Assembly: GCA_963675495.1 (NCBI GenBank)
Contig: OY776215.1
Location: 512,001 to 576,000, forward strand
Direction of reading: 5' to 3'
Source: an uncultured Methanolobus sp.
Lineage (GTDB): Archaea > Halobacteriota > Methanosarcinia > Methanosarcinales > Methanosarcinaceae
Length of the DNA stretch: 64,000 nt
The notes below the pieces were generated by a model that saw only the letters and a program-made list of their open reading frames with translations, had not been told where the DNA came from and did no database searches. A program made the position numbers and the translations under genes. The stretch's first letter is position 1. Each line of letters opens with the position of its first letter. Shown here in pieces: positions 6,869-25,758 of the stretch.

Positions 6869-7264
6869 ATGCTCTCCAAAAACATCAATAAAGAGTGGTT
6901 GCGTACAGAAGAGATATCAGACTTCCTGCATGATGCCAGATACATAATCCTGCTTTACATAGCAGGAGATTTCCTGACTACATTCCATGCACTCAACAAC
7001 GGATACGGGTTTGAGGAAAATGGTTTGCTTTCAGGCATAATGGCAGATAATGGGATCTGGTCATTGCTACTTATTAAAATGCTTATCCTGCTTGTAATAT
7101 ACTGGAATTACAGAGCAATAAAGACATCCGTACATTCCTATGCAAAGAAACTATGGGACTTTTCCAGAACAGGGATCAGTCTTTTCGGACTTATACTTGT
7201 GATCAATAACATGATGGTAATTCTTGTAAGATTAAGCCTGTTCGAGTACCTGGGCCTCTCCTGA
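6869..7264 (+). CDS. Small multi-pass membrane protein, DUF5658-like
   Basis: Three hydrophobic segments; GDFLTT...G.EEN..L motif. Confidence 0.6.
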   Translation: MLSKNINKEWLRTEEISDFLHDARYIILLYIAGDFLTTFHALNNGYGFEENGLLSGIMADNGIWSLLLIKMLILLVIYWNYRAIKTSVHSYAKKLWDFSRTGISLFGLILVINNMMVILVRLSLFEYLGLS

Positions 7265-8287
7265 AAGAGACTCTTTTAGATCAGTGGCTTTCATGTTTAT
7301 CACCATTTCAGCAATATCAGAACTATATTCAGCAATACGATGGAAGCTTGCAATTATTTTTCTTTTTCGTTCACCAGAAAGACAGTAGGTTTCCCCGGAA
7401 ACTTCAGACTTCTGACTAATCTTGTTACCAAGTGTAGAGATCATTCTGGATGTCCTTATTACATGGTTGGCAAGGTCAGTATTCATTTCCAGTAGAGACC
7501 TGAAGGAATCCTGGAATAGCTTCTGGGAAAGCAATCCCATCTCAACTACATCCTTATTTTCTTCGCTGTTACCGTCCATCTGAATAACAGTATTTGCTAT
7601 TTCCTGAACGTGATCACCTATACGTTCCATCAATTTAATGATCAAGCGATATCCAAGACAATCCTTGGAGTTCTCTATACCTATTTTCCGGGCAAGGTTT
7701 GAATCATCAAGAGCTGCTTTTATCTGCCTGACGCTTAATAGATAGAATTTATCAACATCATTATCCCTCTGGGCGATATCTCTGGCAAGTTCGATATCAA
7801 CTTCCCTCAAAGCAACAATTGAATCTTCCATCATGGAAAAAATAATACGGAACATGCTTTGCAGGGATTTTTCCAGGGTTATATCCTGGAACTTCAGAAG
7901 ATTTTGAAGTACTACTTCTGTCCTGGATTCTTCAACTATCTCAATTCCGATGAGACGTTTGCGTGCGGAATCCTTGAGATATTTGCGCTCAGCTGCCGTA
8001 AAACCTCTAGAAGAAACAACACGGATAATATCATATCCAACAAGATAATTCGCAACAAGGAATCTGAAATTCTCCTCTTGGTCGTCAGAAATGGTCATTT
8101 CTACCATTGAACGACGAGCCAGTTTCTTGTTACCTGAATCAGGAGTTATAGATAGCGAACGGTCTGGTTTTATATTAAGGAGAACAGTATCTCCTGCACC
8201 AAGTCCGCCCTCCCTTACCCACTCAATAGGAAGGGAAACTATGTATGTCGAACCGCCTGTCAACTGAATCTTTCTTTTATGAGATAT
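7232..8287 (-). CDS. AbrB/SpoVT-domain plus double PhoU-domain phosphate regulator (copy 1)
   Basis: KRKIQLTGGSTYIVSLPIEW AbrB N-terminus; RDNDVDKFY, MERIGDH and RIAEYSSDIAE PhoU motifs. The frame extends upstream of the called TTG (8263); the start at 8287 (ATA) is inferred. Confidence 0.9.
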   Translation of the reverse strand: MSHKRKIQLTGGSTYIVSLPIEWVREGGLGAGDTVLLNIKPDRSLSITPDSGNKKLARRSMVEMTISDDQEENFRFLVANYLVGYDIIRVVSSRGFTAAERKYLKDSARKRLIGIEIVEESRTEVVLQNLLKFQDITLEKSLQSMFRIIFSMMEDSIVALREVDIELARDIAQRDNDVDKFYLLSVRQIKAALDDSNLARKIGIENSKDCLGYRLIIKLMERIGDHVQEIANTVIQMDGNSEENKDVVEMGLLSQKLFQDSFRSLLEMNTDLANHVIRTSRMISTLGNKISQKSEVSGETYCLSGERKRKIIASFHRIAEYSSDIAEMVINMKATDLKESLSGEAQVLEQA

Positions 8288-8313: not shown

Positions 8314-9444
8314 TTAAGAGATTGTCAGGTTGCCCGAAACATGACTGAGTTTGGAGGTCATACCGTCGTCATCTATAACCATCAGGTCAATAGTCAGATT
8401 GTTAGCAGTATTAGGATAATTAGTGATAACGGGCCTTACAACCATCCCAGAGAGACTAGTATAATTATAAATTTGATTAGAGTCTTCCCATATAGCCCAT
8501 CTGTAACCTGTTATGAAACCATCTGAATCCACTGAATCCGATGCATCCAGTATCCAATAATTTTTAATCGTGGGAGTTCCATTTCCATCGAGAATTGATT
8601 CCACTTTGAACTGCACTTCGGCCACCGGCATTGGTGGAGTGAAAAGCTCCCTGAATACGTTGATATAGGATGTTATCATTTCGATTTTAAGAGGGTCGTT
8701 TTCAGAAGGAGCATTTCCCACATATGAAAGGAAGTCAATTGTGTATGAGATATCGTAAGCAGACGTGTTTGTAAGACTGCCGCCAAAATCTGAACCGAAG
8801 AATGTTATCTGTCTGCTCTCATTATCTATCAAATAATTGCCTGCTTCGGTACATGTTGTTGAATTAACAGAATCGTTCACATGGTAATCGTAATGAATAT
8901 CGCCGTAGGCAGGCCATGGATGTTTTTGCAGTGAATATGTGAAATTAATGCTGTTATTAGTCCATGTAGAATTGTCTATGATTTCTGTGCCCTCTACAGT
9001 AATATCCGAAAAGTTAAGGTGAACGGTCTTGCTTTTTGTTGCAGGTATCTTTAACCTATGGTTTGCACTATAAACTGCAGGGTAGTTCCTGTAAACATCG
9101 AATGTACCTGGACTGTCATATGCTTTGAAATGTAGAAAATACCCGTTATTCACGCTTATTGAAGAAATATAGGAATCCTCAATATTGAGATTTAGTATTT
9201 TCAGGTCAATGGACTGCCATGTGGAACCATTGCCAACTGGATCCATAGAAACAATTTTAAGATCCTCGTTCTCAACAGATGTTTGATGGCTTTCAAGTTC
9301 CATAGCTTGTTTCTGCGTTGTAGAGATCATGTAAGCAACGCTTGAAGCGGCGATTATTGTAATTAGTATCAGAAGTAGCGTGCCAAATATGACTGAAACT
9401 CCACGTGTATCCTTTAAAAACGCTTTCATATCGTTACCAACCAT
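8314..9444 (-). CDS. Archaeal type IV pilin-like protein with class III signal peptide and C-terminal PKD-like domain
   Basis: KDTRG/VSVIFGTLLLILITIIAA prepilin N-terminus; C-terminal LDASDSVDSDGFITGYRW...LMVIDDDG. Confidence 0.85.
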   Translation of the reverse strand: MVGNDMKAFLKDTRGVSVIFGTLLLILITIIAASSVAYMISTTQKQAMELESHQTSVENEDLKIVSMDPVGNGSTWQSIDLKILNLNIEDSYISSISVNNGYFLHFKAYDSPGTFDVYRNYPAVYSANHRLKIPATKSKTVHLNFSDITVEGTEIIDNSTWTNNSINFTYSLQKHPWPAYGDIHYDYHVNDSVNSTTCTEAGNYLIDNESRQITFFGSDFGGSLTNTSAYDISYTIDFLSYVGNAPSENDPLKIEMITSYINVFRELFTPPMPVAEVQFKVESILDGNGTPTIKNYWILDASDSVDSDGFITGYRWAIWEDSNQIYNYTSLSGMVVRPVITNYPNTANNLTIDLMVIDDDGMTSKLSHVSGNLTIS

Positions 9445-9483: not shown

Positions 9484-9500
9484 CCTATAATATATATAGG
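9484..9500. promoter_or_regulatory. Near-palindromic operator CCTATA-N5-TATAGG abutting the BRE/TATA of the pilin gene
   Basis: Minus strand reads CCTATATATATTATAGG-AATAAAG-TATATAA; 16/17 identical to 11100-11116. Confidence 0.55.
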
Positions 9501-9549: not shown

Positions 9550-10245
9550 ATGATTACTTTTAGAGCTTTGATGGTGCTTACTAGCTTCGGTTTGAAAAAC
9601 GTACCTGCCAATGTGGTACTGTTAATAGAGGAAGATATAGGAGATGTAAAGAGTGTATTCTTCCGCAAGATAAGCTCCGATGCACTAACGCTCGGAAAAA
9701 AAGTACATTACATATCAACAAGAAGTTCCGGAAAGGATATTACGGCTGAACTAAGTGAATCTGCCACCACGAGCCTGTCGGAGAACTTTACAATCATAGG
9801 TAACTTTTCAGACCCTGTGGCATTGCTTGATATGTGTTACAGAAGACATAATCTATGCAATAGGCTTTATGGAGAAAATGCAGGCCCATTGCACAATATA
9901 ATCGATGCAGATGTTTGCATCATAGACATGTTCTCCTCACTTTTCATTCATGAGGAAATCGAGGTCATTTCCGAGGCAATTAGATCACTCATCAATATCA
10001 GCAGGGAAGCAAACATCACATTCCTGCTCTCGGCAGACATGGGCATACTTCCCGAGAGGGCTGAGAAGATCATCCGCTCCATGGTTGACGGCGTAATCCA
10101 GTTCAGGACAGAGTACACCGGGGACAAGATTAACAGATTCATAAACATCCCTAAAATGAAAGGCAGTCTCCCCCTGAATAAAATGATAGCCTACAATGTC
10201 ACCAGACAGGGAATCACCATGGATACAAGGGAAAGGGTTGGTTAA
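9550..10245 (+). CDS. KaiC/RAD55/FlaH-like RecA-superfamily ATPase, degenerate Walker A
   Basis: VVLLIEEDIGDVKS (P-loop position), VCIIDMFS (Walker B), VDGVIQFR...RFINIPKMKG C-terminal KaiC-type motif. Confidence 0.8.
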   Translation: MITFRALMVLTSFGLKNVPANVVLLIEEDIGDVKSVFFRKISSDALTLGKKVHYISTRSSGKDITAELSESATTSLSENFTIIGNFSDPVALLDMCYRRHNLCNRLYGENAGPLHNIIDADVCIIDMFSSLFIHEEIEVISEAIRSLINISREANITFLLSADMGILPERAEKIIRSMVDGVIQFRTEYTGDKINRFINIPKMKGSLPLNKMIAYNVTRQGITMDTRERVG

Positions 10246-10270: not shown

Positions 10271-10750
10271 CTATGATTGTATACCTTGCTTTTCTTCCGC
10301 ATCATTGTATCTTATAAATGAGGGAGGGTTCAAACCATCCGTTGGATGGTAATTGATAGAGATGAACCTCATTATACTCAATACTAACAATAAAGCAGAA
10401 AAGACCAGCAAAACATCAGTCTTAAAATTATTACTGTATACCAGCACAGTGATCTCACGCATGATTGTCAGAATAGTAGCATCAGCCACATAGGTAAGCC
10501 TTATTCTCTCATGAACACGATAATCAGCGAAGGTCTTGAAGAGGTCAATGAGAACAAAGATCGTCAGAATACCGTATACTACCTGACTCAGATCACCTGT
10601 TTTCAACAATACATACCATATAGTCCGGAAAATATTGAACGTTTCTATGATTATTGCCAGCAAGAGTATGTAAAGTACTGTAACCGTCACTGCGTAAATT
10701 ACTTTTTTGTATATTTTATCATGTAATTGCATTTCGATTTTCCATGGCAA
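10271..10750 (-). CDS. Phosphate-starvation-inducible PsiE-family membrane protein
   Basis: Four TM helices; ILTIFVLIDLF...Y....RIRLTYVADATILTIMREI family pattern. Confidence 0.8.
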   Translation of the reverse strand: MPWKIEMQLHDKIYKKVIYAVTVTVLYILLLAIIIETFNIFRTIWYVLLKTGDLSQVVYGILTIFVLIDLFKTFADYRVHERIRLTYVADATILTIMREITVLVYSNNFKTDVLLVFSALLLVLSIMRFISINYHPTDGLNPPSFIRYNDAEEKQGIQS

Positions 10751-10848: not shown

Positions 10849-11013
10849 TCACTCCATTATCCCTTCGATCTTAGCACCATCATAATTGCAGCGGGTGTTG
10901 ATCACTCCCTGAAGGATGGGCTTATACTCTGCATCATCATCATCGTTTTGAACTTTGACGGAAGCGCTATACTCAGAACCATTTGTTTTTATCCATGTTT
11001 TTACTGATTTCAT
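10849..11013 (-). CDS. Unannotated 54-aa small protein
   Basis: MKSVKTWIKTNGSEYSASVKVQNDDDDAEYKPILQGVINTRCNYDGAKIEGIME*; GGAGG 8 nt before the ATG; below the ORF-track length cutoff. Confidence 0.65.
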   Translation of the reverse strand: MKSVKTWIKTNGSEYSASVKVQNDDDDAEYKPILQGVINTRCNYDGAKIEGIME

Positions 11014-11099
11014 TTTATTTCCTCCACATGTGAGTGATATTTATTACTCGTGGAATATTATATAGGATTTACACCAATATTTTAGTAGAACTATGATTG

Positions 11100-11116
11100 C
11101 CTATATATATTATAGA
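11100..11116. promoter_or_regulatory. Second copy of the CTATA-N5-TATAG operator
   Basis: CCTATATATATTATAGA, matching the reverse complement of 9484-9500 at 16/17 positions. Confidence 0.5.
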
Positions 11117-11312: not shown

Positions 11313-12698
11313 TTATTCACCCCCTCCATTAACTATTATCGTTGCTGTACCTTTTGATTCACCTGCCGTTGCGGTGACAATGTATGTCCCGGCATCTGAG
11401 CCCGGAATCGGCGTTATTGCTACCGTACCATCCTCTTCTGTCATGGAACTTGTTATCACACCATCTGGTGATATTGACATTTTGACAAAGGTACCAGAAA
11501 CAGGATTCCCATCCATATCAGTTACGTTGAATACGATAGGTTGCTGCAGTGGAATACCACCAAACACTTCCTGCCCATTACCGGAAACGACATTGAGCAT
11601 ATAAGAATCCCCGACACCTGCAGGCAACAGAAGTGTTACACATGCAACATAGCTAAGGATTATCAATAATGCTGAATGCTTGAACCCATGTTTTATCTCA
11701 CCTTCTGTGATCTGGCCGATAATAAGACCACCAAAAAGAGCGTTCAGTATGATCATGTGGAAAAAACCGCGCTCAAAATCAATATCTGAAAGACCTGCAC
11801 CCCCGAGCATTTCCATGCCCACACCCTGAATTAGTGGAAGCAGGGATGTAGAAAGGATGTACGTGAGCATCACAATGATACCCTGAGCAAGGTAGAAAAT
11901 GACAATGTACTGTTTCAGATTCGCCTCCTTTTCTTTCTGTATGTTTATTACCGCCCTCATATCCTCTGAAGTGCGAAACAGCAGGTCAGCAACATTTCCT
12001 CCTGTATATGCTGCCTGGACAACCACGTCGATATATCTGGCAACAAGGCGGCTTTTCATAGACTTTGACATCTTGTGCATGGATTCATCGAACGATTTAC
12101 CCAGCACCATTGAAGAAGCTGCATCCTGTGCATTCTTACTTATCACACCAAGATTGGTTTTTGAGAGATTAATGAACCCTTTTACAGGATCAATTCCTCC
12201 CCTCATGAGTTCTGAAAGCTTGTAAAGGAACTCACTGAAAGCCAGTTCCCTCTTTTGCAGAAGCCTTTTCTGAAGATATGAATCAATTGAAAATGGAATC
12301 AATGCCACCAGTATGGCAAATACCATTATGTGATCCAGATCGTCCCTGGCCTTATCCTCCTCAGATTCCAGTTCTATTTCCTCTTCTTCAACAGCTACGA
12401 CTTCACCCCTTTCTGCTGCCTCCGCAGCTTCCATCTCAGCCACAAGAGCTTCATATGCAGCCTGTTTTGAAGCAGCTTCATCGCTCACAGGAGTACTGCC
12501 CTGCGAATCATCAGTCACAAAAGAGTGACCGCCAAGAATAGCCATTAATATTATCATCAACGCGATAAAAATTGGAATACCAAGGGTTAGATACTCACGC
12601 TTGATATCATAGCGTATTGTCAATATCTGTACGTAACGTTGTATTGTAAGACGATATTTTTCAATATTCATAAAGTACTCCTTGAATATTTCATCCAC
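11313..12698 (-). CDS. Type II secretion/T4P membrane platform protein (TadC/GspF family) with C-terminal Ig-like domain
   Basis: FSEFLYKLSELMRGGIDP...AAYTGGNVADLL GspF domain; ALFGGLIIGQITEGEIKHGFKH; C-terminal VTDMDGNPVSG...GTYIVTATAG. Confidence 0.88.
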   Translation of the reverse strand: MDEIFKEYFMNIEKYRLTIQRYVQILTIRYDIKREYLTLGIPIFIALMIILMAILGGHSFVTDDSQGSTPVSDEAASKQAAYEALVAEMEAAEAAERGEVVAVEEEEIELESEEDKARDDLDHIMVFAILVALIPFSIDSYLQKRLLQKRELAFSEFLYKLSELMRGGIDPVKGFINLSKTNLGVISKNAQDAASSMVLGKSFDESMHKMSKSMKSRLVARYIDVVVQAAYTGGNVADLLFRTSEDMRAVINIQKEKEANLKQYIVIFYLAQGIIVMLTYILSTSLLPLIQGVGMEMLGGAGLSDIDFERGFFHMIILNALFGGLIIGQITEGEIKHGFKHSALLIILSYVACVTLLLPAGVGDSYMLNVVSGNGQEVFGGIPLQQPIVFNVTDMDGNPVSGTFVKMSISPDGVITSSMTEEDGTVAITPIPGSDAGTYIVTATAGESKGTATIIVNGGGE

Positions 12699-13585
12699 AA
12701 TAAAATCAGGAAAACAATGTTAATGAACGGTAGCATGAAGTAGACAAAGAACTGGAACATCTGTTTGGCTGTAAATGGTCCCAGATCAATACCAAGTGCA
12801 CTTGTTACCACTATCATCAGTACCACAAGTACAACGCTCATAACGACACCACTAAGGTAGCCTTCTCCATATACACCCAGAGATTCAACAAACTCCTGCT
12901 GCATCTGTCGCCTCATGTCCATGAGTTCCCTGGACTTCATATCAAGATACGTACGCAGACCTCCACCTGACTGCATGGAGTTGGCAAGATCGATACATAT
13001 GGTTCGCAGTGATTCGGAGGAAGTATTGCGAATAAGGTGATTCATAGCACTAACACCATCTTCCCCCAGAACATCCACACGGTACATTACCTTACCAAAT
13101 TCAACTGAAACATCACCATAATCCTCTATGGCAACTGTTCTGATAACATCCATAGGAGTTGAACCTGCACTCGCAAGGATAGTCATATATCCCAATGCGA
13201 AAGGCATCTCATGTTCAATGTTCATATCCTTGCTGGATATCTTATTGTAGAGCATAAAAGGAAAGCTACTCACGGAAAGACCAAATGTAATGAAAGTCAG
13301 GATACTGATGTAAACAAGCGGCGAAGAGGAAGTGCGAAAGAAAAGTAGAGAAAAGAGAAAAACTACAAATGAAGCAAAGGCAGCTGTTACCAGTGCAAGA
13401 GAAATAAACATACCAGGAGTCATCACCAAATCTGCCTGATAGAGTGATCTTGCAATCTCATCCTGCGGTTTTTTATCAATATATTTTCCAAATGCATAAC
13501 ACAACATTTTATATTTTTCAATATACTTGTTAGTATTTTCATCATTGAAAGCCTGGTGAACATCAACATTCTCGGTCTTGACCAT
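12668..13585 (-). CDS. Type II secretion/T4P membrane platform protein (TadB/GspF family)
   Basis: IEHEMPFALGYMTILASAG, YGDVSVEF, SGGGLRTYL, LGVYGEGY. Confidence 0.9.
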   Translation of the reverse strand: MVKTENVDVHQAFNDENTNKYIEKYKMLCYAFGKYIDKKPQDEIARSLYQADLVMTPGMFISLALVTAAFASFVVFLFSLLFFRTSSSPLVYISILTFITFGLSVSSFPFMLYNKISSKDMNIEHEMPFALGYMTILASAGSTPMDVIRTVAIEDYGDVSVEFGKVMYRVDVLGEDGVSAMNHLIRNTSSESLRTICIDLANSMQSGGGLRTYLDMKSRELMDMRRQMQQEFVESLGVYGEGYLSGVVMSVVLVVLMIVVTSALGIDLGPFTAKQMFQFFVYFMLPFINIVFLILLWMKYSRSTL

Positions 13586-15787
13586 TTAATGCGTCATCTC
13601 CAGCAGTTCATCTTTCTGCCTTGAGTATTTCCTGATGGCTTTTGCAACTGATTCATATTCATGAATACCGTCACGTGCCATACTTTCAAGGTACTTTGCC
13701 CTCAGATCCATTTCCCGGACAAGTTCAGCCGGATCGATACCGAATTCTTCATTTATGTCGTCAAAAAGAGCACTGCTGCCACTGAACTCATATTCATCGG
13801 TAACCGGATTCCATTTAAATACCGGGTTTGTTATCAAATCGCCACGTTCAGGATCAAGTTCTGCAATTTCCACAATCCTCAGTGCACGTCTGAGGAAGTG
13901 TTCACCAACCTTGATCATGGAATTGAAAATGACCATGTCCACACTGGCAAAAAGGTTCCTGGGCACATTCATAGGCTCAGATTCCACTCTTGAGAGCAGT
14001 TCATGTATGGAACCTGCGTGTATTGTACCCATACAGGGGTGACCGACGGAGATAGCCTGGAAGAGAGTGCCGGCTTCAGCACCACGAACCTCACCAACCA
14101 CTATGTATTCAGGTCTTTGTCTCAAAGCAGCCTTAAGCAGGTCGAAGAGTTCGATATCGCCTGCGGTTTTACCGCCTTCACTACCACCAAAACCAGCCCT
14201 TGTGATGGACTGGGTCCAGTTAGGATGCATGAGGTTCATCTCGGCAGTATCCTCAATGGAGACTATCTTATACTCCGGTGGAATGAACGCTCCAAGGGCA
14301 TTGAGTGTTGTTGTCTTACCGGAAGCAGTTCCACCTGCTGCCAGCACGGAACGTTTGTATTCCACCATGAGCCAGAAATAGGCGAGTACGGTTGAATCGT
14401 AGGTCTTGTAATTCATCAGGTCGATACAGGATACAGGATTTGATTTGAAACGCCTGATAGTAAAAGTCGAACCCCTTTTGGTAACCTCTTTTCCAAGAGT
14501 GAGGTTTGCTCGGCTCCCATCCACAAGGGTAGCATCCCTGATGGGCTCCAGCACGGAAATATGCCTGCCTGCTGCCTGTGCCATTCTCATGACGAAGTTG
14601 TTTAGCTCTATTTCTTCATAAATAACATCAGTAGCCACGGAACCATATACCCTGTGATTGACATACAGTGGCGTGAAAGGACCATTGCAAGTGATATCCT
14701 CAAGATAAGGGTCTTTCATAAGGAGATCCATCCTGTCAAATCCCATGTATTTTTTATGCAGGTAGTAGAAGAATTTGTCTTTCTGAGTTTCAGTAAGTTT
14801 CAAGCGATATATATCGACAATCAGATCAAATCTGTCCCTTAGAGCATCAACACGATCCTCTTCCTCTACTAGAAGGATCTCTGAGTGAGCCATTTTGTCA
14901 AATGCATTCTGTATGATGAAGAAAGCTTCCTTTTCAGTTTCACTTAAAGGAGGCTCAAGACATTGATATTGAAGGGATTCCCCATCAAATTCAATATGAA
15001 CATACTGGTTTTTAGGAGTTACTTCATAAGTAATATTCACTTCCTTTTGAGGAACTCCGGGAGCAGGAACAGACAGTTCACCAAAAATGAACTCAGCTTC
15101 TTCGATAGTTTCAGGTTTTGGGGTTATCATCTGCTCTATTTTTTTAAGAAGTAAAGAAGAGGAGGGCTCTTTTATGGACTCCTGTTCCTGCCCATTTACG
15201 GATGTGGATTCATCGTGATCTGTGATTTCAGTAGACGTTTTCTTGTTCTTTCGGAGATTTAAACCGAACTTCCGTTTCTTTTTAACGGGTTTGTTGTTCT
15301 GTTTTTCATCATCCAGTAGAGTACCTGCATCTTCTGATGTAGTTTTAGTTTGTTTATGCGGTTTTTTATCTTTGGAGGATTTCCTGTTTTTCTTCTTCAA
15401 GCTCAAGCCAAATTTTTTCTTTTTAGTAGGCTCTTCTTCCCCTTCAATTAAAATGGAAGAAAATTCATCTTCACCCATAACTTCATTGTCAGGAATTACA
15501 TCATTGACAGTCTGTTTACCAGATTTCTTATCAACATAGTCCAGACTATATCCAGCATCAACTTCATCCTCGTCTTTCAGGAGAGAGGTCAGTTCTTCTT
15601 TTTCTATGTGCCCGTTGCCGGAGATGAGATTGTTATCTACTCGTTCCCGGGTTTCTTCTCCGGCATGAACCGGCGTATCTTCGACACCGGTTTCTTCCGG
15701 AATGGACATAACAGGTTCAGAAGATGATTTTTTTCTACTGAACCTAGATTTTAATCGGAGTTTAGCCAATTCTGCGCCTCCAGACAA
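13586..15787 (-). CDS. Type IV pilus/archaellum-type assembly ATPase (FlaI/PilB/VirB11 family) with long N-terminal extension
   Basis: DPYLEDITCNG, GSTFTIRRF, Walker A GGTASGKTT, IEDTAE, ALRQRPEYIVVGEVRG, GHPCMGTIHA. Confidence 0.95.
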   Translation of the reverse strand: MSGGAELAKLRLKSRFSRKKSSSEPVMSIPEETGVEDTPVHAGEETRERVDNNLISGNGHIEKEELTSLLKDEDEVDAGYSLDYVDKKSGKQTVNDVIPDNEVMGEDEFSSILIEGEEEPTKKKKFGLSLKKKNRKSSKDKKPHKQTKTTSEDAGTLLDDEKQNNKPVKKKRKFGLNLRKNKKTSTEITDHDESTSVNGQEQESIKEPSSSLLLKKIEQMITPKPETIEEAEFIFGELSVPAPGVPQKEVNITYEVTPKNQYVHIEFDGESLQYQCLEPPLSETEKEAFFIIQNAFDKMAHSEILLVEEEDRVDALRDRFDLIVDIYRLKLTETQKDKFFYYLHKKYMGFDRMDLLMKDPYLEDITCNGPFTPLYVNHRVYGSVATDVIYEEIELNNFVMRMAQAAGRHISVLEPIRDATLVDGSRANLTLGKEVTKRGSTFTIRRFKSNPVSCIDLMNYKTYDSTVLAYFWLMVEYKRSVLAAGGTASGKTTTLNALGAFIPPEYKIVSIEDTAEMNLMHPNWTQSITRAGFGGSEGGKTAGDIELFDLLKAALRQRPEYIVVGEVRGAEAGTLFQAISVGHPCMGTIHAGSIHELLSRVESEPMNVPRNLFASVDMVIFNSMIKVGEHFLRRALRIVEIAELDPERGDLITNPVFKWNPVTDEYEFSGSSALFDDINEEFGIDPAELVREMDLRAKYLESMARDGIHEYESVAKAIRKYSRQKDELLEMTH

Positions 15788-16655
15788 TTAGACGTGTGAC
15801 AGCGTTTATTATCATGACAATCAGAATTAACACAAATGCGGCTGCGAAACCTTCTGAAGGTGACACCATACTTGGGAATTCAAATGCATGATACACAGTG
15901 ATTGGAAGTGATGCGACCAGATTCTGGAAAGGAGAAAAACGTATTCCAAAAAGAATACCTTCCTTTGCCGTCACACCAAATTCCGGCATGAACTGTGTGT
16001 ATCCTGCGGTCAAAACAACAACAGCTGATTCCTCGGCAGCTCTTCCTATGCTCAGAACTATACCGGTAACGATACCTGTCAGTGCATAAGGAAGAGTTAT
16101 CTTGCTCATTGTTTCCCATTTTGTAGCCCCCAGTGCATAGCTTGCCTCTTCCAGTTCATGAGGAACTGATTTTATAGCCTCTTCCGAAGCACGCTCAATC
16201 ACAGGAATTATCAGAATGGTAAGGGCAATAGCACCTGAAATAAGAGAAAAACCGCCTGTTATGAAACGCATATGATATACAAGGAACATTAATCCGAATA
16301 TCCCAAGCACGATAGAAGGAGTTCCGGAAAGTACATCTATCACAAAACTGAAGGTGCTTACCAGACGCTCGTTCTTTGCATATTTTTTCATGTATATTGC
16401 AGTCCCTACAGCCAACGGAGCTGCCAGAATTGTAGAAGTAAGAGACAGCAAAATAGTGCCTATAATTGCATTGGCAATTCCACCTCCAAAGCCTTTCGCC
16501 TCGTTTTCAGGAGTAAAGATAAATTCGGGTGTCAGGCTTGGAAGAGCTTCAAAGGCAATTTTACCAAGAATACCGAAAAGAGTAAGTGTTGCAACTGTTG
16601 CTGAAAAATAGCACAGGAATATATAAAATGTTTCTTTCATCTTTCTATGATTCAT
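15762..16655 (-). CDS. pstA: Phosphate ABC transporter permease PstA
   Basis: GGIANAIIGT, PSIVLGIFG, EEASYALGATKWET (EAA loop), IGRAAEESA. Confidence 0.93.
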   Translation of the reverse strand: MNHRKMKETFYIFLCYFSATVATLTLFGILGKIAFEALPSLTPEFIFTPENEAKGFGGGIANAIIGTILLSLTSTILAAPLAVGTAIYMKKYAKNERLVSTFSFVIDVLSGTPSIVLGIFGLMFLVYHMRFITGGFSLISGAIALTILIIPVIERASEEAIKSVPHELEEASYALGATKWETMSKITLPYALTGIVTGIVLSIGRAAEESAVVVLTAGYTQFMPEFGVTAKEGILFGIRFSPFQNLVASLPITVYHAFEFPSMVSPSEGFAAAFVLILIVMIINAVTRLIVWRRRIG

Positions 16656-17650
16656 TTACTGCCCCCCAATGACCTTGAAACAGCAACAAATATGATCTCT
16701 ATTGCAAAAAGTACTGCTGCAATTCCAAAAAGTGCAGCTCTTGGCTCGGGTTCTGAAAAGTGGTGACCTATATCATTGAGAATCTTTGAGGTCATTGCAT
16801 AGCCCGGAGCCATTATAGAAGACGGGATACAGTTGGAATTACCCAGTAACATGACAATGGCCATTGTTTCACCCATTGCACGCATCATGCCAAGTACTAC
16901 TGCAGACATGATACCACCTGATGATGCTGGCAGCACAACCCTTCTTATGGTCTCCCATCTGTTAGCTCCCAGAGAATAAGAAGCATGCCTGTTCTCAATA
17001 GAAACCGAGCGGATAGCATTTTCGGAAATAGTTGTGATAGTGGGGAAAACCATAATAGCAAGAACTGTGGAAGCCAGGAGTACCCCAACACCGGAACCAG
17101 GATTCACATCGACAAATATAGGAATAAAACCCAGGAGTGAATCGATTAGTGGTTCAATGCTGTTCTGAAATATGTTTTCCAGGACGAACAAACCAAATAT
17201 CCCGTAAACAACCGAAGGTATGCCCACCAGTAGTTCTATAAAAGGCCTGATCGTGGATGCCAGACGAGGAGATGCAATTTCCGATAGGAAAATTGCTGTG
17301 AAAATGCTTAACGGGACTGCCATTATTAATGTTACGACCGTCATTATAATGGTACCGGATATATAGGTCCTGATGCCGTATATGTTTTTACCGTAGTTCC
17401 ATTGATCACCGGTTATGAAATACAGACCCTGACTTTTAAAAACCGGTAATGCCGTGTAAAAGATGAATCCTACAAAGAAAATTACAATGAATGTTATGAA
17501 TATACTGCACATTAGAAAGAGCAGTTTTGTTGCAGTATTGTACAGTCCTCTCTGATTTGAACTGTAAGAACCGAATCCAAAAGTACTAAAAGTTTGATTC
17601 CAGGATGATTCCTTATTTGTAATCTGTTCAAAAAATTCTCTGCTGCCCAT
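16652..17650 (-). CDS. pstC: Phosphate ABC transporter permease PstC
   Basis: ELLVGIPSVVYGIFG, ASYSLGANRWET, RAMGETMAIVM. Confidence 0.94.
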   Translation of the reverse strand: MGSREFFEQITNKESSWNQTFSTFGFGSYSSNQRGLYNTATKLLFLMCSIFITFIVIFFVGFIFYTALPVFKSQGLYFITGDQWNYGKNIYGIRTYISGTIIMTVVTLIMAVPLSIFTAIFLSEIASPRLASTIRPFIELLVGIPSVVYGIFGLFVLENIFQNSIEPLIDSLLGFIPIFVDVNPGSGVGVLLASTVLAIMVFPTITTISENAIRSVSIENRHASYSLGANRWETIRRVVLPASSGGIMSAVVLGMMRAMGETMAIVMLLGNSNCIPSSIMAPGYAMTSKILNDIGHHFSEPEPRAALFGIAAVLFAIEIIFVAVSRSLGGSK

Positions 17651-17654
17651 GATA

Positions 17655-17699
17655 ATCGTTGTAAAAATAAAAGATAGATTTGTGCATCAGCACAAATCT
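17655..17699 (-). terminator. Intergenic stem-loop/partial terminator between pstS and pstC
   Basis: Perfect 10-bp stem AGATTTGTGC-ATCA-GCACAAATCT (17676-17699), followed on the minus strand by ATCTTTTATTTTT. Confidence 0.6.
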
Positions 17700-17717
17700 T
17701 TATTCAGATTTTCAGGC

Positions 17718-18701
17718 TTAACTGAAGTCAATGATTGAGAAGTATCCTACTTCTTCGAAGTATTCCATTGATGCTGGAGACTTTGCGAAGTTGATGAAGG
17801 ACTGCTCAATTGAGGATGGGTTTCCGTTTGTAAGGTAGTTGAGTGGTCTTGTAAGGTCGCTCTGGTAGGTGTCCTCACCTGAGAGACAGTCAAGTATTGC
17901 ATCTTCATCTACTACATTGTATCCATCTACACCAATGATTACTACTGCATCTGAGGAAGCTGCAAATCCATAGTCAACAAATCCGATTGATTCTGTTGTG
18001 TCTTCCACTGCTGCAAGCACACCAGCATTTCCTACTGCACCTGTAGCTTCAGAATCGTCAACATCCTTTGCGCTCGCGTAGTCGCCACCAAGGTACTTTG
18101 CGAATGTCTCTTCTGTACCACTTGCTTCTGATCTCTGGTAGACTGTGGTTACTGTACCTGATGCCTGAGTGATGTTTCCACTAGAAATTGCTACATCTAC
18201 TGTACCATCAGTACAGTTACCGTATATGTTGAAAAGCTCAGTCTGTGTAATGTTACCACCAGCGATATTGCTGTTTGCGTTGGTGATTACTACTACAGCG
18301 CTTCCACCGATCTGGTGTGCCTGGAGTGTTGGATAGTCAGTGACTGTGTCAACTTCTTTGGATGCTGAACCGATGTCAATGATGTCGAGTTCGGTTGATG
18401 TGATACCTGCACCGGATCCACCGCCCTGTACTGTTACCTTGATACCGTTGTGGTCTGCCATGTATGCTTCTGCGAGAAGTTCAGAGACTGGCTGAACTGT
18501 GGTTGAACCTGCGATAAGAAGTTCGGTTGATGCTGCAGATGTTGCGTCTGATGCACTTGCGGAGTCTGAAACGTCACTTGAGAATGATCCCATGATCGTA
18601 CCTACAGCTGCTGCACCAGCGATTGCTACCACTACTAAAACGAGGGTTGCAACGATTGGAGAAACACCAGCTTCATCGTTGAAAATTTTCTTTAAATTCA
18701 T
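17718..18701 (-). CDS. pstS: PstS-family phosphate-binding protein with type IV pilin-like (class III) N-terminus
   Basis: MNLKKIFNDEAG/VSPIVATLVLVVVAIAGAAAV; PstS motifs AGSTTVQP, GGGSGAG, RSEASGTEETF, IGFVDYG, LTRPL. Confidence 0.92.
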   Translation of the reverse strand: MNLKKIFNDEAGVSPIVATLVLVVVAIAGAAAVGTIMGSFSSDVSDSASASDATSAASTELLIAGSTTVQPVSELLAEAYMADHNGIKVTVQGGGSGAGITSTELDIIDIGSASKEVDTVTDYPTLQAHQIGGSAVVVITNANSNIAGGNITQTELFNIYGNCTDGTVDVAISSGNITQASGTVTTVYQRSEASGTEETFAKYLGGDYASAKDVDDSEATGAVGNAGVLAAVEDTTESIGFVDYGFAASSDAVVIIGVDGYNVVDEDAILDCLSGEDTYQSDLTRPLNYLTNGNPSSIEQSFINFAKSPASMEYFEEVGYFSIIDFS

Positions 18702-19009
18702 ATTTATCGTACACCAATTTTGTTTATGTTCCTATTTGCGAGCGGGGTTTAATCGCTCTGGCATCTAATTGGATGGTGAATATATAATACTTATACAAAT
18801 GATGTATATAGGCAAATAATCAATATAGATTTCTTTTTTCTCTATATACAAGTGCATATACAACAATGGATTTTACTTAAGTGTTGAATGATAAACAAAT
18901 ATAATAAAAAATAAAAGTTAGCAATCAAAAAAGAGCTAAACATAACGATAAATGTTATTGGATTGAAAACTAAAAAGAAATACAATAAAGTATTTGCGAA
19001 CTACAGTAA

Positions 19010-21058
19010 TTACTTTGCAATCAAAGTATAAGCAAGCGAAAATACAGTCAGTGCAATAACAATAATTATCAAAAATAGATAATTTTCAACGGCATTTACA
19101 GCAGCATTTTCAACCAGGGAAAACAATGAAAGTATACCATCTAACATCCCTTCAAATGGACCAGTGACAGCTCGTTGCCCTTTGTCAAAAATAGTTCCAA
19201 TATCGTCTGCTTTCTCTGAGAAATAATTACGTGTTGCAGGTAACTGATACACATCTGAGGATTCATCAGTAATATCTTCATTGATAGAATACAGAGCTTC
19301 ATCACCACTATTAACTTCTTTCTCAGATCGTACAGCAATTGGAATTTGGGCTGCTACATTATCAATACCATCAGTATCAGAAACCCACCCACTATCAAAA
19401 GGACTCCAGTATTGTTTAATCTCCTTACCACTATCATAATGTGAAGACTGTGCTTCCCCATCATAACCTCCAATCCCCCTGAACTCACATACTGCAGGGG
19501 GAAGGTCAGGTGCATTAGAAGAGCTGAAATCATAGCCAAAAGTAAGTGTTGAGCCTGGCGGGAGAAGTACCCCCTCTACAGAGACAATTTGTGTACCATT
19601 GACCCTTGAAACGCTAAGATCCCATTCACTTAGCGGCAAATCGCTCCCTTCCAGGCTCTTTTCCAAACTACCACCCACATAGCTTAGTTCATCGGGAATA
19701 ATATCTGTCAGGTTTACCCAGGATGCACGGTCTCCATCATTGTACGCTTTAAGAGTGACCGAGTAATCAGTGCCTGAACCAGACAGAGATTTGGACAGGA
19801 TCACATGAGGACCATGGACTGTTATACTGCCTGATTCGGAATTCCAGGTGAATTCCTTTCCAAAAAAATTTGCAGTGGCAACTACGCTGTCAAAAGAGTA
19901 TTCACCCTGCCTTATTGGAATCAGCTTTTGCCCGAGATAATACTGTCCGTCAGGAGCCATTCCATTATAACTACCAGACTCATATGTTTCATAGATAACA
20001 AATTCATCAGGTACCTGTGTAAAGTCTATAGTCAGATCATCAACTGTGTACAGACCTGTATTGTAAACATGGGTCCGGAGGAATGAATACTCCCAGGCAT
20101 CCCAAATCTCATAGTCTTTAGAGTTACGGTTATCAATACTACTTTCAAATTCCTGGACATACCAGGAAGTCATATTGATCTCTTCATTCACGATTTTAAA
20201 AACAACCTTTATATCAGGCTCTGTACAACCAAATGAGTAGGAATTATTGGCATCAAAGTAACCATCTTTTATGTCATACCCACCAGCCGTTGCGTTGACA
20301 TAATAGATAAGGTCATAAGGAGATGTCTTACCATCCCATTCAGGTGCAACTATAGTAAAATTGATGCTGGTAGTATCACCGACTTCAAGGCAGCCAAGGT
20401 TCTTTTTTATAATTCCATCCCTGTACTCAAAATCCCCTTTAGCTTTAAGTCTGAACTCACCAATATCAACATTAAGGATTGCATTCTCAATCCAGGCTTC
20501 GCCAGTATTTTTCACTTCCACATCAATGTGTTTCTCTTCACCCGGAGCGTATTGTTCTGATGAGACATCAACATCATCGACCGTCTCAGAACTTGCTTCA
20601 ATAATTATTTCAAGTTCCGGCCATCCTCTTGAAAAGATTTCCACATGAGCAGAAGGTGTTTTCTGACTATCTTCTGTGATATCAGTGAGTTCAACTTTAA
20701 CCTCATTATCCCACTCGAACCACTTTCGATCGTAATCACCATTCAAAAAAAGGAATTCTCCCCTGACAACTCCGGCTTTCTCGATTGATATCAAAGCTGC
20801 ACTCAGATCTTCATCGAAGTCATCTGCCCTGAAAGTATAATCGATACCGTTGACTTCTATATTTTCTATTTGTCCCCACTGGATACTAAGTGAACCTTCA
20901 CTGACCCACTCCACGCAGGTATCAAGGTCATCACATGGACAATTGGTATTTGCAGATGCAAAAGGAAGGCATGAAGAGAATAGTAATACCAGTGCTGTGA
21001 GGTAGAACAGACTAAGTATATGTCCAGACGTTTTTTTCACTAAGCCCACTCTCCACAA
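19010..21058 (-). CDS. Membrane-anchored cell-surface protein (S-layer/BatD/DUF11-like beta-sandwich domains)
   Basis: Sec signal peptide; VEVKNTGE; LSKSL...VTLKAYNDG...NLTDIIP DUF11-like pattern; C-terminal TM helix. Confidence 0.7.
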   Translation of the reverse strand: MWRVGLVKKTSGHILSLFYLTALVLLFSSCLPFASANTNCPCDDLDTCVEWVSEGSLSIQWGQIENIEVNGIDYTFRADDFDEDLSAALISIEKAGVVRGEFLFLNGDYDRKWFEWDNEVKVELTDITEDSQKTPSAHVEIFSRGWPELEIIIEASSETVDDVDVSSEQYAPGEEKHIDVEVKNTGEAWIENAILNVDIGEFRLKAKGDFEYRDGIIKKNLGCLEVGDTTSINFTIVAPEWDGKTSPYDLIYYVNATAGGYDIKDGYFDANNSYSFGCTEPDIKVVFKIVNEEINMTSWYVQEFESSIDNRNSKDYEIWDAWEYSFLRTHVYNTGLYTVDDLTIDFTQVPDEFVIYETYESGSYNGMAPDGQYYLGQKLIPIRQGEYSFDSVVATANFFGKEFTWNSESGSITVHGPHVILSKSLSGSGTDYSVTLKAYNDGDRASWVNLTDIIPDELSYVGGSLEKSLEGSDLPLSEWDLSVSRVNGTQIVSVEGVLLPPGSTLTFGYDFSSSNAPDLPPAVCEFRGIGGYDGEAQSSHYDSGKEIKQYWSPFDSGWVSDTDGIDNVAAQIPIAVRSEKEVNSGDEALYSINEDITDESSDVYQLPATRNYFSEKADDIGTIFDKGQRAVTGPFEGMLDGILSLFSLVENAAVNAVENYLFLIIIVIALTVFSLAYTLIAK

Positions 21059-21347: not shown

Positions 21348-21782
21348 CTATCCTCTTTTCAGCACTTCATATCCAAATACGGATATCGCTATTATAATAG
21401 ATGTCATGGAAAGCATGAATATCATGTTGGAATACATTTCTTCCAGAACGAACCATGAAAGACCCCCCAAGACATGCGTGACGCTCATAAGTAAGATAAT
21501 AAAAACACCAATTGGATAGATTTCTTCATTCTCCAGGAATTTGAGAATGGTGTAACCCATGACATAATAGAAAATGACAGTTAAAGCCAGGTACGGGATA
21601 ACAATTCCATTTTTCACTGCAAATACCAATGTTGGACTGAACTCGTGTGCAAGTATATTCTCTATGCTACCGGCAAAATAGAATGTAAAGGAGTAATCAA
21701 TGATCACTCCCACGCAGAGAAAAATAGGAATGAGCCTATAATTGTGATAGATCGATCGCAGACTCTGCAATATTTGACGCAT
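21348..21782 (-). CDS. Multi-pass membrane protein, distantly DUF5658-like
   Basis: Four TM helices; IDYSFTF...HEFSP motif; directly downstream of phoU copy 2. Confidence 0.65.
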   Translation of the reverse strand: MRQILQSLRSIYHNYRLIPIFLCVGVIIDYSFTFYFAGSIENILAHEFSPTLVFAVKNGIVIPYLALTVIFYYVMGYTILKFLENEEIYPIGVFIILLMSVTHVLGGLSWFVLEEMYSNMIFMLSMTSIIIAISVFGYEVLKRG

Positions 21783-22698
21783 AATCTTTTATCCTGCTAA
21801 AACTGTCAATTATCAACTCAACGGAATCCTCGGTCGGCAACTGGCTGGCCTGGATTAGTTTTTCGTTGAACTTTTTTTCCCTGCCAAGGACATCATTTGC
21901 AAGCTCACTGTTGGATTCCCTGAGTGCTTCGGTGCTGTCCATGAAGAGAGATCGGCACTCCTGACATAATTCTACCAACATAGAAAGCACACTTTCTGGC
22001 AACGTGATATAAGAAAAATGTAATGATATCTTAGATATGTGATCACCAATACGCTCTATATCATTTGCAGCAAGACGATAATAGAAAGACTCAACAAGAT
22101 TCAGATTATCATGCTTTGAAGGTTTTTTCAGATTCAGGCGTTCCACATGTTGCCTGGATACAAGAAGGAACATACGGTCCAGATCATCGTCACGGGATAT
22201 TATATGGCCACACATTTCCCGATCATTTTCCATAAATACAGTAGCAAGCTCATCAAGCATGAGATAGACAAGCGAGGACATCCTTTTGAGACCCTTTTCG
22301 ATTGTGAAATCCTCAGTATCAAGGAAATTCTTTATCACTATTTTCTTATCACTGCTTTCAACGATCTCAAGTCCCACAAGACGATGACATAATTCTTTGA
22401 TCTCGCGGCGTACCTCTCCAGAGATATCATCGCCAATAAGTTCTATTGCCTGATAGTCCTTAACAATATAAAGGCCCACTATATCCCTTATTATATGATC
22501 TAATTGCTTGTTTAACTTTATTTTTTTAGCCTTCTTTGAAGGCTTTGCTGCAGGAGGTTTGAGGAGTAAGGAACCATCATCCTGGTAAAAAATAGAGATA
22601 TGAGAGCCAGCTTCAAGTTTTGAGTTAAGCGCCCATTTCTTAGGCAGGGTCATAACATAAGTGGATTTGCCTGTTATCTGCACTTTTCTGCTATCCAT
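21736..22698 (-). CDS. AbrB/SpoVT-domain plus PhoU-domain phosphate regulator (copy 2)
   Basis: MDSRKVQITGKSTYVMTLPKKW; RDDDLDRMF; IERIGDH; RIKDYASNIAE. Confidence 0.92.
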   Translation of the reverse strand: MDSRKVQITGKSTYVMTLPKKWALNSKLEAGSHISIFYQDDGSLLLKPPAAKPSKKAKKIKLNKQLDHIIRDIVGLYIVKDYQAIELIGDDISGEVRREIKELCHRLVGLEIVESSDKKIVIKNFLDTEDFTIEKGLKRMSSLVYLMLDELATVFMENDREMCGHIISRDDDLDRMFLLVSRQHVERLNLKKPSKHDNLNLVESFYYRLAANDIERIGDHISKISLHFSYITLPESVLSMLVELCQECRSLFMDSTEALRESNSELANDVLGREKKFNEKLIQASQLPTEDSVELIIDSFSRIKDYASNIAESAIDLSQL

Positions 22699-24667: not shown

Positions 24668-24693
24668 GTTTGTACCTGATCATTTACAAATCA

Positions 24694-25620: not shown

Positions 25621-25758
25621 AACAACATCATTTTTACTTAAGCATATCTACCTAATTATGATACATAAGCCACTTAGTATATATAAATTGTTCATCATAA
25701 ATAAATAATGCATAGATATATATGTACGTGATATCACTACATACATTGGTGGATAGAT

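Follow-up and report, generated by a model that had tools for sequence, protein, structure and literature searches.

A phosphate-binding protein with a predicted pilin-type N-terminus, genetically linked to a type IV filament machine in Methanolobus

Why should the gene for a phosphate-binding protein head a gene string that continues with phosphate permeases and then with the genes of a type IV filament (T4F) machine? We addressed this question in a 64,000-nucleotide (nt) stretch of archaeal DNA, hereafter the window, which corresponds to positions 512,001–576,000 of contig OY776215.1 in the complete 2.87-Mb genome of an uncultured Methanolobus sp. Unless another genome or locus is named, positions are those of the window. 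The original prediction for this DNA held that PstS itself is a pilin, polymerized or displayed by a dedicated machine to capture phosphate; a functional precedent is the Sulfolobus bindosome (PMC4371748, PMC3387779). We found that its description of the locus was correct in every detail. Open reading frames (ORFs) on the minus strand and family assignments bore out six co-oriented genes, in the order pstS (17718..18701, 327 amino acids (aa)), pstC (16652..17650; TIGR02138, 280 bits, cut-off 196), pstA (15762..16655; TIGR00974, 264 bits, cut-off 193), a gene for a 733-aa FlaI-like T4F ATPase (13586..15787; T2SSE, 4.6e-32), and tadB and tadC, which encode the two halves of a platform protein. 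The first half is TadB-like and corresponds to the N-terminal half of FlaJ (12668..13585; T2SSF, 8.6e-12), and the second is TadC-like, corresponds to the C-terminal half of FlaJ and ends in an Ig-like domain (11313..12698; T2SSF, 1.5e-14). The junctions given previously also agreed with the ORF coordinates. A 67-nt gap separates pstS from pstC; pstC and pstA overlap by 4 nt, pstA and the ATPase gene by 26 nt, and tadB and tadC by 31 nt, and the ATPase gene and tadB are directly adjacent. The three overlaps fit with a single transcript. We consider it reasonably probable that this Methanolobus locus encodes a type IV filament system that is specific for phosphate and resembles a bindosome.

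Binding domain and N-terminus of PstS

PstS scored 66 bits against the Pfam model PBP_like_2 (cut-off 27; 5.1e-18) and 105 bits against the NCBIfam PstS-family model TIGR02136, below the cut-off of 206.6; the latter model was matched by all 42 of the 42 PstS family members. Among 1.84 billion representatives scanned in full with HMMER, the family numbered 1943 proteins at E≤0.001, of which 112 reached E≤1e-30. We modelled PstS with AlphaFold2 from 42 relatives; the model had a mean predicted local distance difference test score (pLDDT) of 89.4, with values above 90 over the binding domain, and comprised a helix of about 31 residues (15–45), a flexible, Ser/Asp/Ala-rich linker of low confidence (46–58) and then a confident periplasmic-binding-protein fold. 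When this model was compared with PDB structures by Foldseek, the rows listed down to rank 40 were all phosphate-binding proteins, with 4exl at the top (E 2.4e-20). Similarly, 23 of the 25 PDB sequences found by phmmer at E≤0.001 were named as phosphate-binding or phosphate-transport proteins and two had generic names; the second-best PDB match, 1twy, generically named in the phmmer list, is titled phosphate transport receptor in the Foldseek list. The modelled fold is of the type II periplasmic-binding-protein kind, and the structures that come closest to it are solved PstS proteins. The motifs GSTT, GGGSG and RSEASGT were present in the translation, as had been noted, and aligned with those of solved PstS proteins in the PDB sequence search. 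Positions S66, D109, R190 and G195 were invariant or nearly so in family alignments; they are putative phosphate ligands, the ligands of E. coli PstS being a Ser/Thr after strand 1, the Ser of the GGGSG loop, an Asp and Arg...SGT.

The N-terminal region reads in the translation as originally quoted, and it has no lipobox because it contains no Cys. The predicted class III leader MNLKKIFNDEAG (residues 1–12; 18666..18701, minus strand) is followed by the hydrophobic stretch VSPIVATLVLVVVAIAGAAAVGTIMGSF, and a short leader and a hydrophobic helix are thus both present. The putative cleavage site G12|V13 agrees with hhalign, in which the PstS family profile was in register with that of the neighboring 376-aa pilin family (probability 87.5%, E 3.6e-6) and G12|V13 fell on G16|V17 of the pilin. 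A check against pilin models, suggested with the original prediction, gave a divided answer: the window protein fell below the cut-offs (see below), whereas 31 of 42 diverse PstS family members matched TIGR02537 at E≤0.01 (best 9.2e-8). Besides, a class III-like motif occurred within the first 60 residues in 113 of the best 150 PstS family representatives. The FlaFind rule asks for a basic residue at position −2, where PstS has Ala, and this departure had been raised as a concern. The concern falls away, since Lys or Arg at −2 was also absent from four of the five other pilin-like N-termini that a regular-expression search found in the genome (the neighboring 376-aa pilin has Arg), and some PstS relatives do carry Lys or Arg there. 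The genome contains one prepilin peptidase gene of the A24 family (PF01478).

These data bear on an alternative in which the two parts of the locus are co-regulated but physically independent. PstS would be membrane-anchored, with its class III-type N-terminus, cleaved or uncleaved, as a transmembrane tether, and the T4F machine would build a phosphate-starvation adhesion pilus from the 376-aa pilin. Shared membership of the phosphate regulon would then be the sole reason for their proximity. Archaeal binding proteins are indeed often membrane-tethered (PMC3387779). However, across 24 homologs (20 orthologs and 4 paralogs), the mature helix (residues 13–45; 18567..18665, minus strand; delimited by conservation and the AlphaFold2 model) was 88–100% identical to that of the window PstS, whereas the binding domain (residues 61–327) was 33–80% identical. 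It is unlikely that a plain anchor would be held so strictly while the domain drifts, and the pattern fits a helix that packs against partners. The match to pilin profiles, in register with the neighboring pilin, also argues against a mere tether. Thus, helix conservation, the hhalign register and the TIGR02537 matches of the family make the proposed archaeal class III (prepilin-like) N-terminus of PstS well supported at the level of sequence.

Four Methanolobus genomes had a second class III PstS paralog (L040:3433-4608, L042:5562-6653, L045:16856-17944 and L049:6684-7808), which was 37–42% identical overall and 88–97% identical in the mature helix. These paralogs adjoin an extra AbrB-PhoU gene and are absent from the genome of the window. 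Such paralogs suggest that a single machine may handle two or more binding proteins.

Conservation of the linkage and of the filament machine

Of 35 other Methanolobus genomes, 24 had an ortholog of the ATPase (at least 72% identity) and 11 had only paralogs of approximately 40% identity. In 20 of the 24, pstA and pstC lie directly upstream of the ATPase gene on the same contig, and a class III pstS comes next in 19 of these, being lost to the contig end in the remaining one (G022). The ATPase gene of the other four genomes (G008, G011, G043 and G046) is located at a contig edge. No other gene was seen upstream of the ATPase ortholog among the Methanolobus genomes with context. When PstS was searched in 24 Methanolobus genomes, all 13 that had a PstS ortholog also had the ATPase ortholog; 9 of the 11 PstS-less genomes lacked the ATPase ortholog as well, and the other two were fragmented, with the locus meeting a contig end.

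Beyond the genus, patterns derived from the PstS N-terminus were searched in one genome per species and retrieved 28 loci, 21 of which carry T4F genes of the same type within approximately 10 kb. They come from ANME-1 (L067) and ANME-2 (L076) anaerobic methanotrophic archaea, Methanosarcinales metagenome-assembled genomes (MAGs; L070, L072), Methanosarcina sp. T3 (L079), Methanoculleus (L069, L073 and L078, with rearranged gene order), Methanoregula (L082, L083), Methanolinea (L087), other Methanomicrobiales (L084, L088, L092), Methanocellaceae (L085, L086, L091) and three Methanolobus records. One further T4F-linked locus (L081, JAGGRV010000077.1) is filed under a "Deltaproteobacteria bacterium" MAG, and its contig is probably a mis-binned archaeal (ANME-like) one. 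In L091, PstS is followed directly by ATPase, TadB, TadC and pilin genes, without pstCA; a PstS that heads the T4F genes in this way argues against physical independence of the two parts. Among the seven loci without a T4F gene, L068 is a true exception, to which we return. Three others (L071, L074 and L090) are on contigs that are short or truncated, the stretch fetched for L089 ends just before the ATPase gene, L080 represents an additional PstS paralog in a genome with the main cluster approximately 30 kb away, and L093 (Haloarcula) is a 99-residue N-terminal match that is not PstS and has no pst gene. Among 400 evenly drawn other genomes of the phylum, 21 had an ATPase ortholog (E≤1e-150). 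They represented 9 of 121 genera, so the distribution of the system is patchy.

The original prediction had asked for a synteny survey, and this one showed that the pstSCA–T4F linkage recurs across Methanolobus and several orders, which indicates that the arrangement is more than chance. An alternative with chance adjacency or a mis-called PstS start can appeal to the N-terminus of the window PstS, which on its own stays below curated pilin cut-offs. It is contradicted by the N-terminus and gene order kept across the genus and at least four orders, by the conservation of the helix, by the ATPase clade described below, and by a promoter-like block and ribosome-binding site conserved upstream of the called start in 16 genomes. 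Its probability is close to negligible. We regard it as well supported by these comparisons that class III PstS is genetically tied to pstCA and a dedicated T4F machine far beyond one genome.

What kind of machine is it? The best model for the ATPase was archaellar FlaI (421 bits, below the cut-off of 550), and the BasE model gave 186 bits against a cut-off of 1000. Its N-terminal extension of approximately 240 residues is of low complexity, rich in Lys, Glu and Ser and widely variable between species, only its first residues being conserved, and these in some species; the whole ATPase ranges from 641 to 826 aa. Each platform half has one T2SSF domain. The TadB-like half found its best NCBIfam match at positions 7–239 of the 555-position ArlJ/FlaJ model, and the TadC-like half matched the C-terminal part of ArlJ models. 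Residues ~389–454 of the latter (window 11313–11510) resemble an Ig-like domain (Big_1, 1.1e-6, below cut-off), an unusual end for a platform protein that may contact the filament or the envelope. A divergently oriented gene (9550..10245, plus strand; KaiC Pfam model, 1.3e-8) encodes a single-domain KaiC-family ATPase resembling FlaH/ArlH (FlaH 51 bits, ArlH 49 bits, both below cut-off). Every Methanolobus locus that extends far enough has this gene in the cluster, and it is kept there in other orders too.

A maximum-likelihood, unrooted tree was built from 32 ATPase cores, 16 of them pst-linked and 16 of them paralogs from five genomes; it omits L072 (ATPase in two frames), L085 and L091 (represented by L096 and L098) and most Methanolobus copies. 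The 16 pst-linked ATPases formed one clade (support 100/99) on a long branch, apart from the 16 paralogs, and branching inside it roughly followed taxonomy. This clade neighbored the one with the archaellum FlaI of the genome (98/98), whose identity was verified by its position inside an ArlF-G-H-I-J operon elsewhere in the genome. In four of four further genomes, the best match to the window ATPase was the pst-linked copy (52–65% identity, versus 39–48% for paralogs). Wherever context was available, this ATPase lineage was found only beside class III PstS, which again speaks against independence of the filament and binding parts. The neighboring FlaI clade and the FlaH-like and FlaJ-like partners suggest a machine that resembles a relative of the archaellum motor core rather than the Bas proteins. 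A wider scenario can be offered tentatively, in which a dedicated filament for harvesting nutrients arose from an old branch of the archaellum motor core (FlaH/FlaI/FlaJ-like) before Methanosarcinales, Methanomicrobiales, Methanocellales and ANME-1 diverged or while they did so, with PstS as a subunit outside the envelope and PstCA borrowing the single PstB; we consider it somewhat less likely than not.

Some copies of the machine showed possible signs of decay, including an in-frame TGA in a Methanolobus ATPase gene (G051:C10:33790-35970), an ATPase gene of a Methanosarcinales MAG that is divided between two frames (L072:5265-7021) and fragmentary tadB/tadC matches in a Methanomicrobiales MAG (L088:1074-3067). 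These could be sequencing errors or pseudogenes.

The likely structural subunit of the proposed filament is the 376-aa class III pilin (8314..9444, minus strand; TIGR02537, 22.5 bits, cut-off 20). Its family alignment showed a conserved (T/D)RG|VSV leader and helix, and it is co-conserved with the cluster. The C-terminal tail contains a motif that we take to be PKD-like, although no PKD model matched, and the protein atlas gave no usable match for this pilin. A complex prediction of PstS (13–327) with the pilin (17–376) scored 0.00 and was run without controls, so it counts neither way. A second large pilin-like protein of 770 aa is encoded approximately 13 kb from the locus (31875–34187, minus strand; Pilin_N 26.4 bits, over cut-off; leader type NESA|ISP), outside the conserved module.

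Possible mechanism, phosphate transport and regulation

In the filament reading that we favor, the single A24 prepilin peptidase would remove the PstS leader at G12|V13, and the ATPase and platform, with the FlaH-like partner, would lift the PstS helix out of the membrane. PstS would then become part of a short filament or of an array spanning the envelope, probably together with the 376-aa pilin, which would act as structural subunit; numerous phosphate receptors would in this way be kept within the S-layer space or beyond it. Captured phosphate would be handed to PstCA, energized by the sole genomic PstB encoded in trans, and expression would be under phosphate control via the flanking AbrB-PhoU regulators. 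Phosphate control is suggested by the adjoining genes for AbrB-PhoU proteins, PsiE, a histidine kinase and further phosphate/phosphonate-binding proteins. The original interpretation stands in part. The N-terminus of PstS is pilin-like, but the larger module has a dedicated 376-aa pilin, which makes a role as sole pilin less likely than one as pilin-like cargo or minor subunit; the disordered PstS linker likewise makes a PstS-only filament unlikely and the 376-aa pilin the likely structural subunit.

Several observations weigh against the filament reading. Residues 1–50 of the window PstS, taken alone, scored 17.9 bits against TIGR02537 (cut-off 20; E 0.0016) and 16.6 bits against Pilin_N (cut-off 25.2), and the leader has neither a basic residue at −2 nor a net positive charge beside the cleavage site. 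In contrast to classical pilins, PstS has a disordered linker between helix and globular domain, which argues against a PstS homopolymer. No pstB was found in the window locus. The gap from pstA to the ATPase gene was 105–500 nt in 7 of 14 Methanolobus loci (by longest-ORF calling), and a separate promoter could fit there. Locus L068, from a Methanosarcinales MAG, has class III PstS, PstC and PstA and no T4F gene within approximately 8–10 kb. Finally, the docking of filament-bound PstS on PstCA has no explanation. The pstA–ATPase gaps and L068, which keeps the pst part without T4F genes, fit physical independence of the two parts. The same can be said of the existence of a dedicated pilin, with which PstS is not needed as a subunit, and of the surroundings, a phosphate island with two AbrB-PhoU genes, psiE, a histidine kinase, a PhnD-like protein and a second PstS. 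Set against the strictly conserved helix, the pilin register, the restricted occurrence of the ATPase lineage and locus L091, independence appears unlikely.

Without pstB in the locus, transport needs an ATPase shared in trans. The only PstB of the genome over cut-off (1,501,163–1,501,933 of the genome) belongs to a canonical pstS-pstC-pstA-pstB-phoU operon approximately 0.97 Mb away. A second PstB candidate (2,709,034–2,709,786 of the genome) was rejected as GlnQ-like, being located in an amino-acid ATP-binding cassette (ABC) operon. Methanoculleus palmolei, Methanosarcina sp. T3 and a Methanoregulaceae MAG each have two PstC/PstA pairs and one PstB, beside the pair that is not T4F-linked, and a Methanocellaceae MAG has one intact PstC/PstA pair with PstB, plus fragments. 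PstB genes inside or beside the cluster occurred in three lineages (L081, L083 and L087); that of L081 lies between the pilin and AbrB-PhoU genes and its product is 69% identical to the PstB of the window genome. The locus PstC and PstA are 38–44% identical to the canonical pair of the same genome, and in their translations both keep loops that we take to be EAA-type coupling loops. From these sequences, the simplest reading is a PstB shared in trans by two PstCA pairs.

Could the FlaI-like ATPase instead have taken over the role of PstB and power PstCA directly? The pstB gene is missing exactly where the FlaI-like gene sits, with its 26-nt overlap with pstA, and in all five complete genomes or MAGs checked there was one PstB only, beside the other PstCA pair. 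However, the ATPase has its own platform proteins and a FlaH-like partner, and the three lineages above have PstB inside or beside the cluster. To our knowledge, T2SSE/FlaI hexamers and ABC nucleotide-binding domains have neither a fold nor a docking surface in common. Such a replacement is therefore very improbable.

The missing pstB would also fit a PstS domain that serves as a sensor or adhesin on the pilus, binding phosphate minerals or signalling external phosphate to the cell (for example, by a route of PstCA/PhoU type), with bulk uptake left to the complete canonical PstSCAB-PhoU system encoded elsewhere. The two PhoU-domain regulators and the histidine kinase that flank the locus would suit a sensor, and an adhesive role could draw on the pilin tail, which presumably recalls PKD domains, and on the surface protein encoded upstream of pstS, for which DUF11-like similarity is a lead only; domains of both types are associated with adhesion proteins. 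On the other hand, pstC and pstA are intact and over curated cut-offs, both permeases keep the presumed EAA-type loops, and the pair is kept with the cluster in most lineages, which would be costly without transport. The binding-site motif positions are also conserved across the PstS family. We therefore rate a sensor or adhesin as rather improbable.

The six-gene string belongs to a larger conserved module: AbrB-PhoU, 144-aa protein, 682-aa protein, pstS, pstC, pstA, ATPase, tadB, tadC, divergent FlaH-like ATPase, 376-aa pilin and AbrB-PhoU. The two flanking genes encode AbrB/MazE-PhoU fusion regulators, upstream at 21736..22698 (minus strand; PhoU 3.1e-22, MazE_antitoxin (AbrB-type) 4.1e-8) and downstream at 7232..8263 (minus strand; PhoU 1.4e-22, MazE_antitoxin 3.4e-7), and the downstream position is conserved in Methanolobus. 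The 144-aa membrane protein (21348..21782, minus strand) had no Pfam or NCBIfam match; its gene overlaps the upstream AbrB-PhoU gene by 47 nt, an overlap kept in 13 of 13 gene pairs (12 Methanolobus loci and the window), and homologs were also found in clusters of Methanoculleus, Methanoregula and others. A relationship to the DUF5658-like 131-aa protein beside the other AbrB-PhoU gene was considered and rejected (BLASTP E 0.48). The 682-aa surface protein (19010..21058, minus strand) has a signal-like N-terminal segment and a C-terminal membrane anchor, and its gene is directly upstream of pstS in Methanolobus and several other lineages. Its protein atlas matches to archaeal DUF11/CARDB/BatD clusters (0.84–0.86) are below 0.9 and serve as leads only. 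The gene psiE (phosphate-starvation-inducible E family; 10271..10750, minus strand; PsiE 1.6e-8) is an accessory insert; among the Methanolobus loci examined, it occupied this position in G023 as an intact gene and in G008 as two fragments next to each other. Between tadC and psiE there is a 54-aa ORF with a GGAGG ribosome-binding site (10849–11013, minus strand).

The region upstream of pstS (18702..19009, minus strand) contains an AT-rich promoter-like block, an inverted repeat (18823–18848) and a hairpin-forming 5' leader, and an alignment of 16 Methanolobus genomes showed strong conservation of this block. Several CTATATA-type boxes, a GAGCG...CGCTC leader hairpin and a GGTG ribosome-binding site before the ATG were seen at 18702–18900. 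The inverted-repeat pattern occurred once in the window (0 expected). We consider the block a candidate operator for the flanking AbrB-PhoU regulators. No shared operator emerged from a loose 14-mer search (24 matches, 14 expected), and a genome-wide regular expression found no copy at the canonical pst operon. A near-palindrome, CCTATA...TATAGG, was present upstream of the 376-aa pilin gene (9484–9500) and between tadC and psiE (11098–11113). In its loose form this pattern had four sites genome-wide, and no link to pstS was found. The phosphate island continues at 22853–26685 with genes for an sCache-HAMP-PAS histidine kinase, a PhnD-like phosphonate-binding protein and a divergent second PstS, which is 50% identical to the canonical PstS and has an ordinary hydrophobic N-terminus. 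Genes for these three proteins also flank the module in several Methanolobus species.

Significance and comparison with known systems

Since 2007, the concept of a bindosome has been based on a single Sulfolobus system. Earlier FlaFind predictions, as cited in PMC3387779, reportedly included class III binding proteins of the same kind as those in a recent survey. In that survey, Sivabalasarma and Albers (PMC13705601, October 2026) listed 4397 candidate class III binding proteins in archaeal genomes and proposed that they functionalize type IV filaments; it could not tie these proteins to a particular filament machine, and the locus described here supplies such a tie for one substrate. The main text of that paper names neither phosphate or pst, permease, KaiC, ANME, Methanomicrobi nor a linked locus, while its supplements (S9 Fig, top Pfam families) may list PBP_like_2/PstS. 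Makarova et al. (2016, PMC4858521) described KaiC-family ATPases co-transcribed with VirB11/TadC genes in Methanomicrobia; phosphate, ABC and transporter do not occur in the main text, and the supplements could list the neighborhood. We found no description of a pst-linked T4F locus in the literature searched, which included PMC13705601, PMC4858521, PMC3387779, PMC4371748 and PMC6864096; the supplements of the first two could list one. The general idea that class III binding proteins functionalize type IV filaments in many archaea is, however, already published (PMC13705601).

If the wider scenario of a repurposed archaellum motor core is true, this would be the first phosphate "bindosome" and the first bindosome outside Sulfolobales with a defined machine, and the way in which binding proteins ride type IV filaments could be approached directly by genetics. 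The module turns the question of whether and why they do so into ordinary experiments. The lineages that carry it are responsible for methane production and for the anaerobic oxidation of methane, frequently in sediments poor in phosphate. A question about transport arises as well, as two PstCA pairs appear to share one PstB.

Compared with canonical PstSCAB-PhoU, the system has the same PstS fold and motifs, PstC and PstA over cut-off and phosphate-regulon neighbors. It differs in that the locus is without pstB and single-domain phoU, and in that PstS has a pilin-type N-terminus in place of a lipobox or Sec signal. The likeness to the archaellum lies in FlaH, FlaI and FlaJ (ArlH/I/J), which are the closest sequence relatives of the three core proteins by best NCBIfam matches. 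All matches are, however, below cut-off (FlaI 421 versus 550, ArlJ 61 versus 550, ArlH 49 versus 215), the locus has no archaellins, ArlF, ArlG or ArlCDE, FlaJ is split into two genes, and the genome has a separate, complete archaellum operon.

The proteins of the recent survey are of the same class as PstS, their binding domain being preceded by a class III leader and a hydrophobic helix, and the hypothesis that such proteins functionalize a type IV filament applies to PstS as well (PMC13705601). The bindosome of Sulfolobus/Saccharolobus, with BasEF, the BasABC pilins and the class III proteins GlcS, AraS and TreS, which bind sugars, improves substrate capture at the envelope (PMC13705601, PMC4371748), and here a binding protein of predicted class III type is genetically linked to a machine of type IV pilus type. 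The machines are not orthologous: the scores were 186 versus 1000 bits for NF053672 (BasE) and 27 versus 1300 for NF053673 (BasF). In the Methanolobus system a single pilin of 376 aa takes the place of three small ones, and there are a FlaH-like ATPase and a two-part platform; the substrate is phosphate and not sugar, and the lineage is that of Halobacteriota methanogens and ANME. Sulfolobus class III binding protein genes sit with their transporters, away from bas, whereas binding protein, permeases and machine are in one gene string here. The concept is known; what is new is its use for phosphate, the lineage in which it occurs, a machine resembling the archaellum, the placement in one string with the permeases and the absence of PstB.

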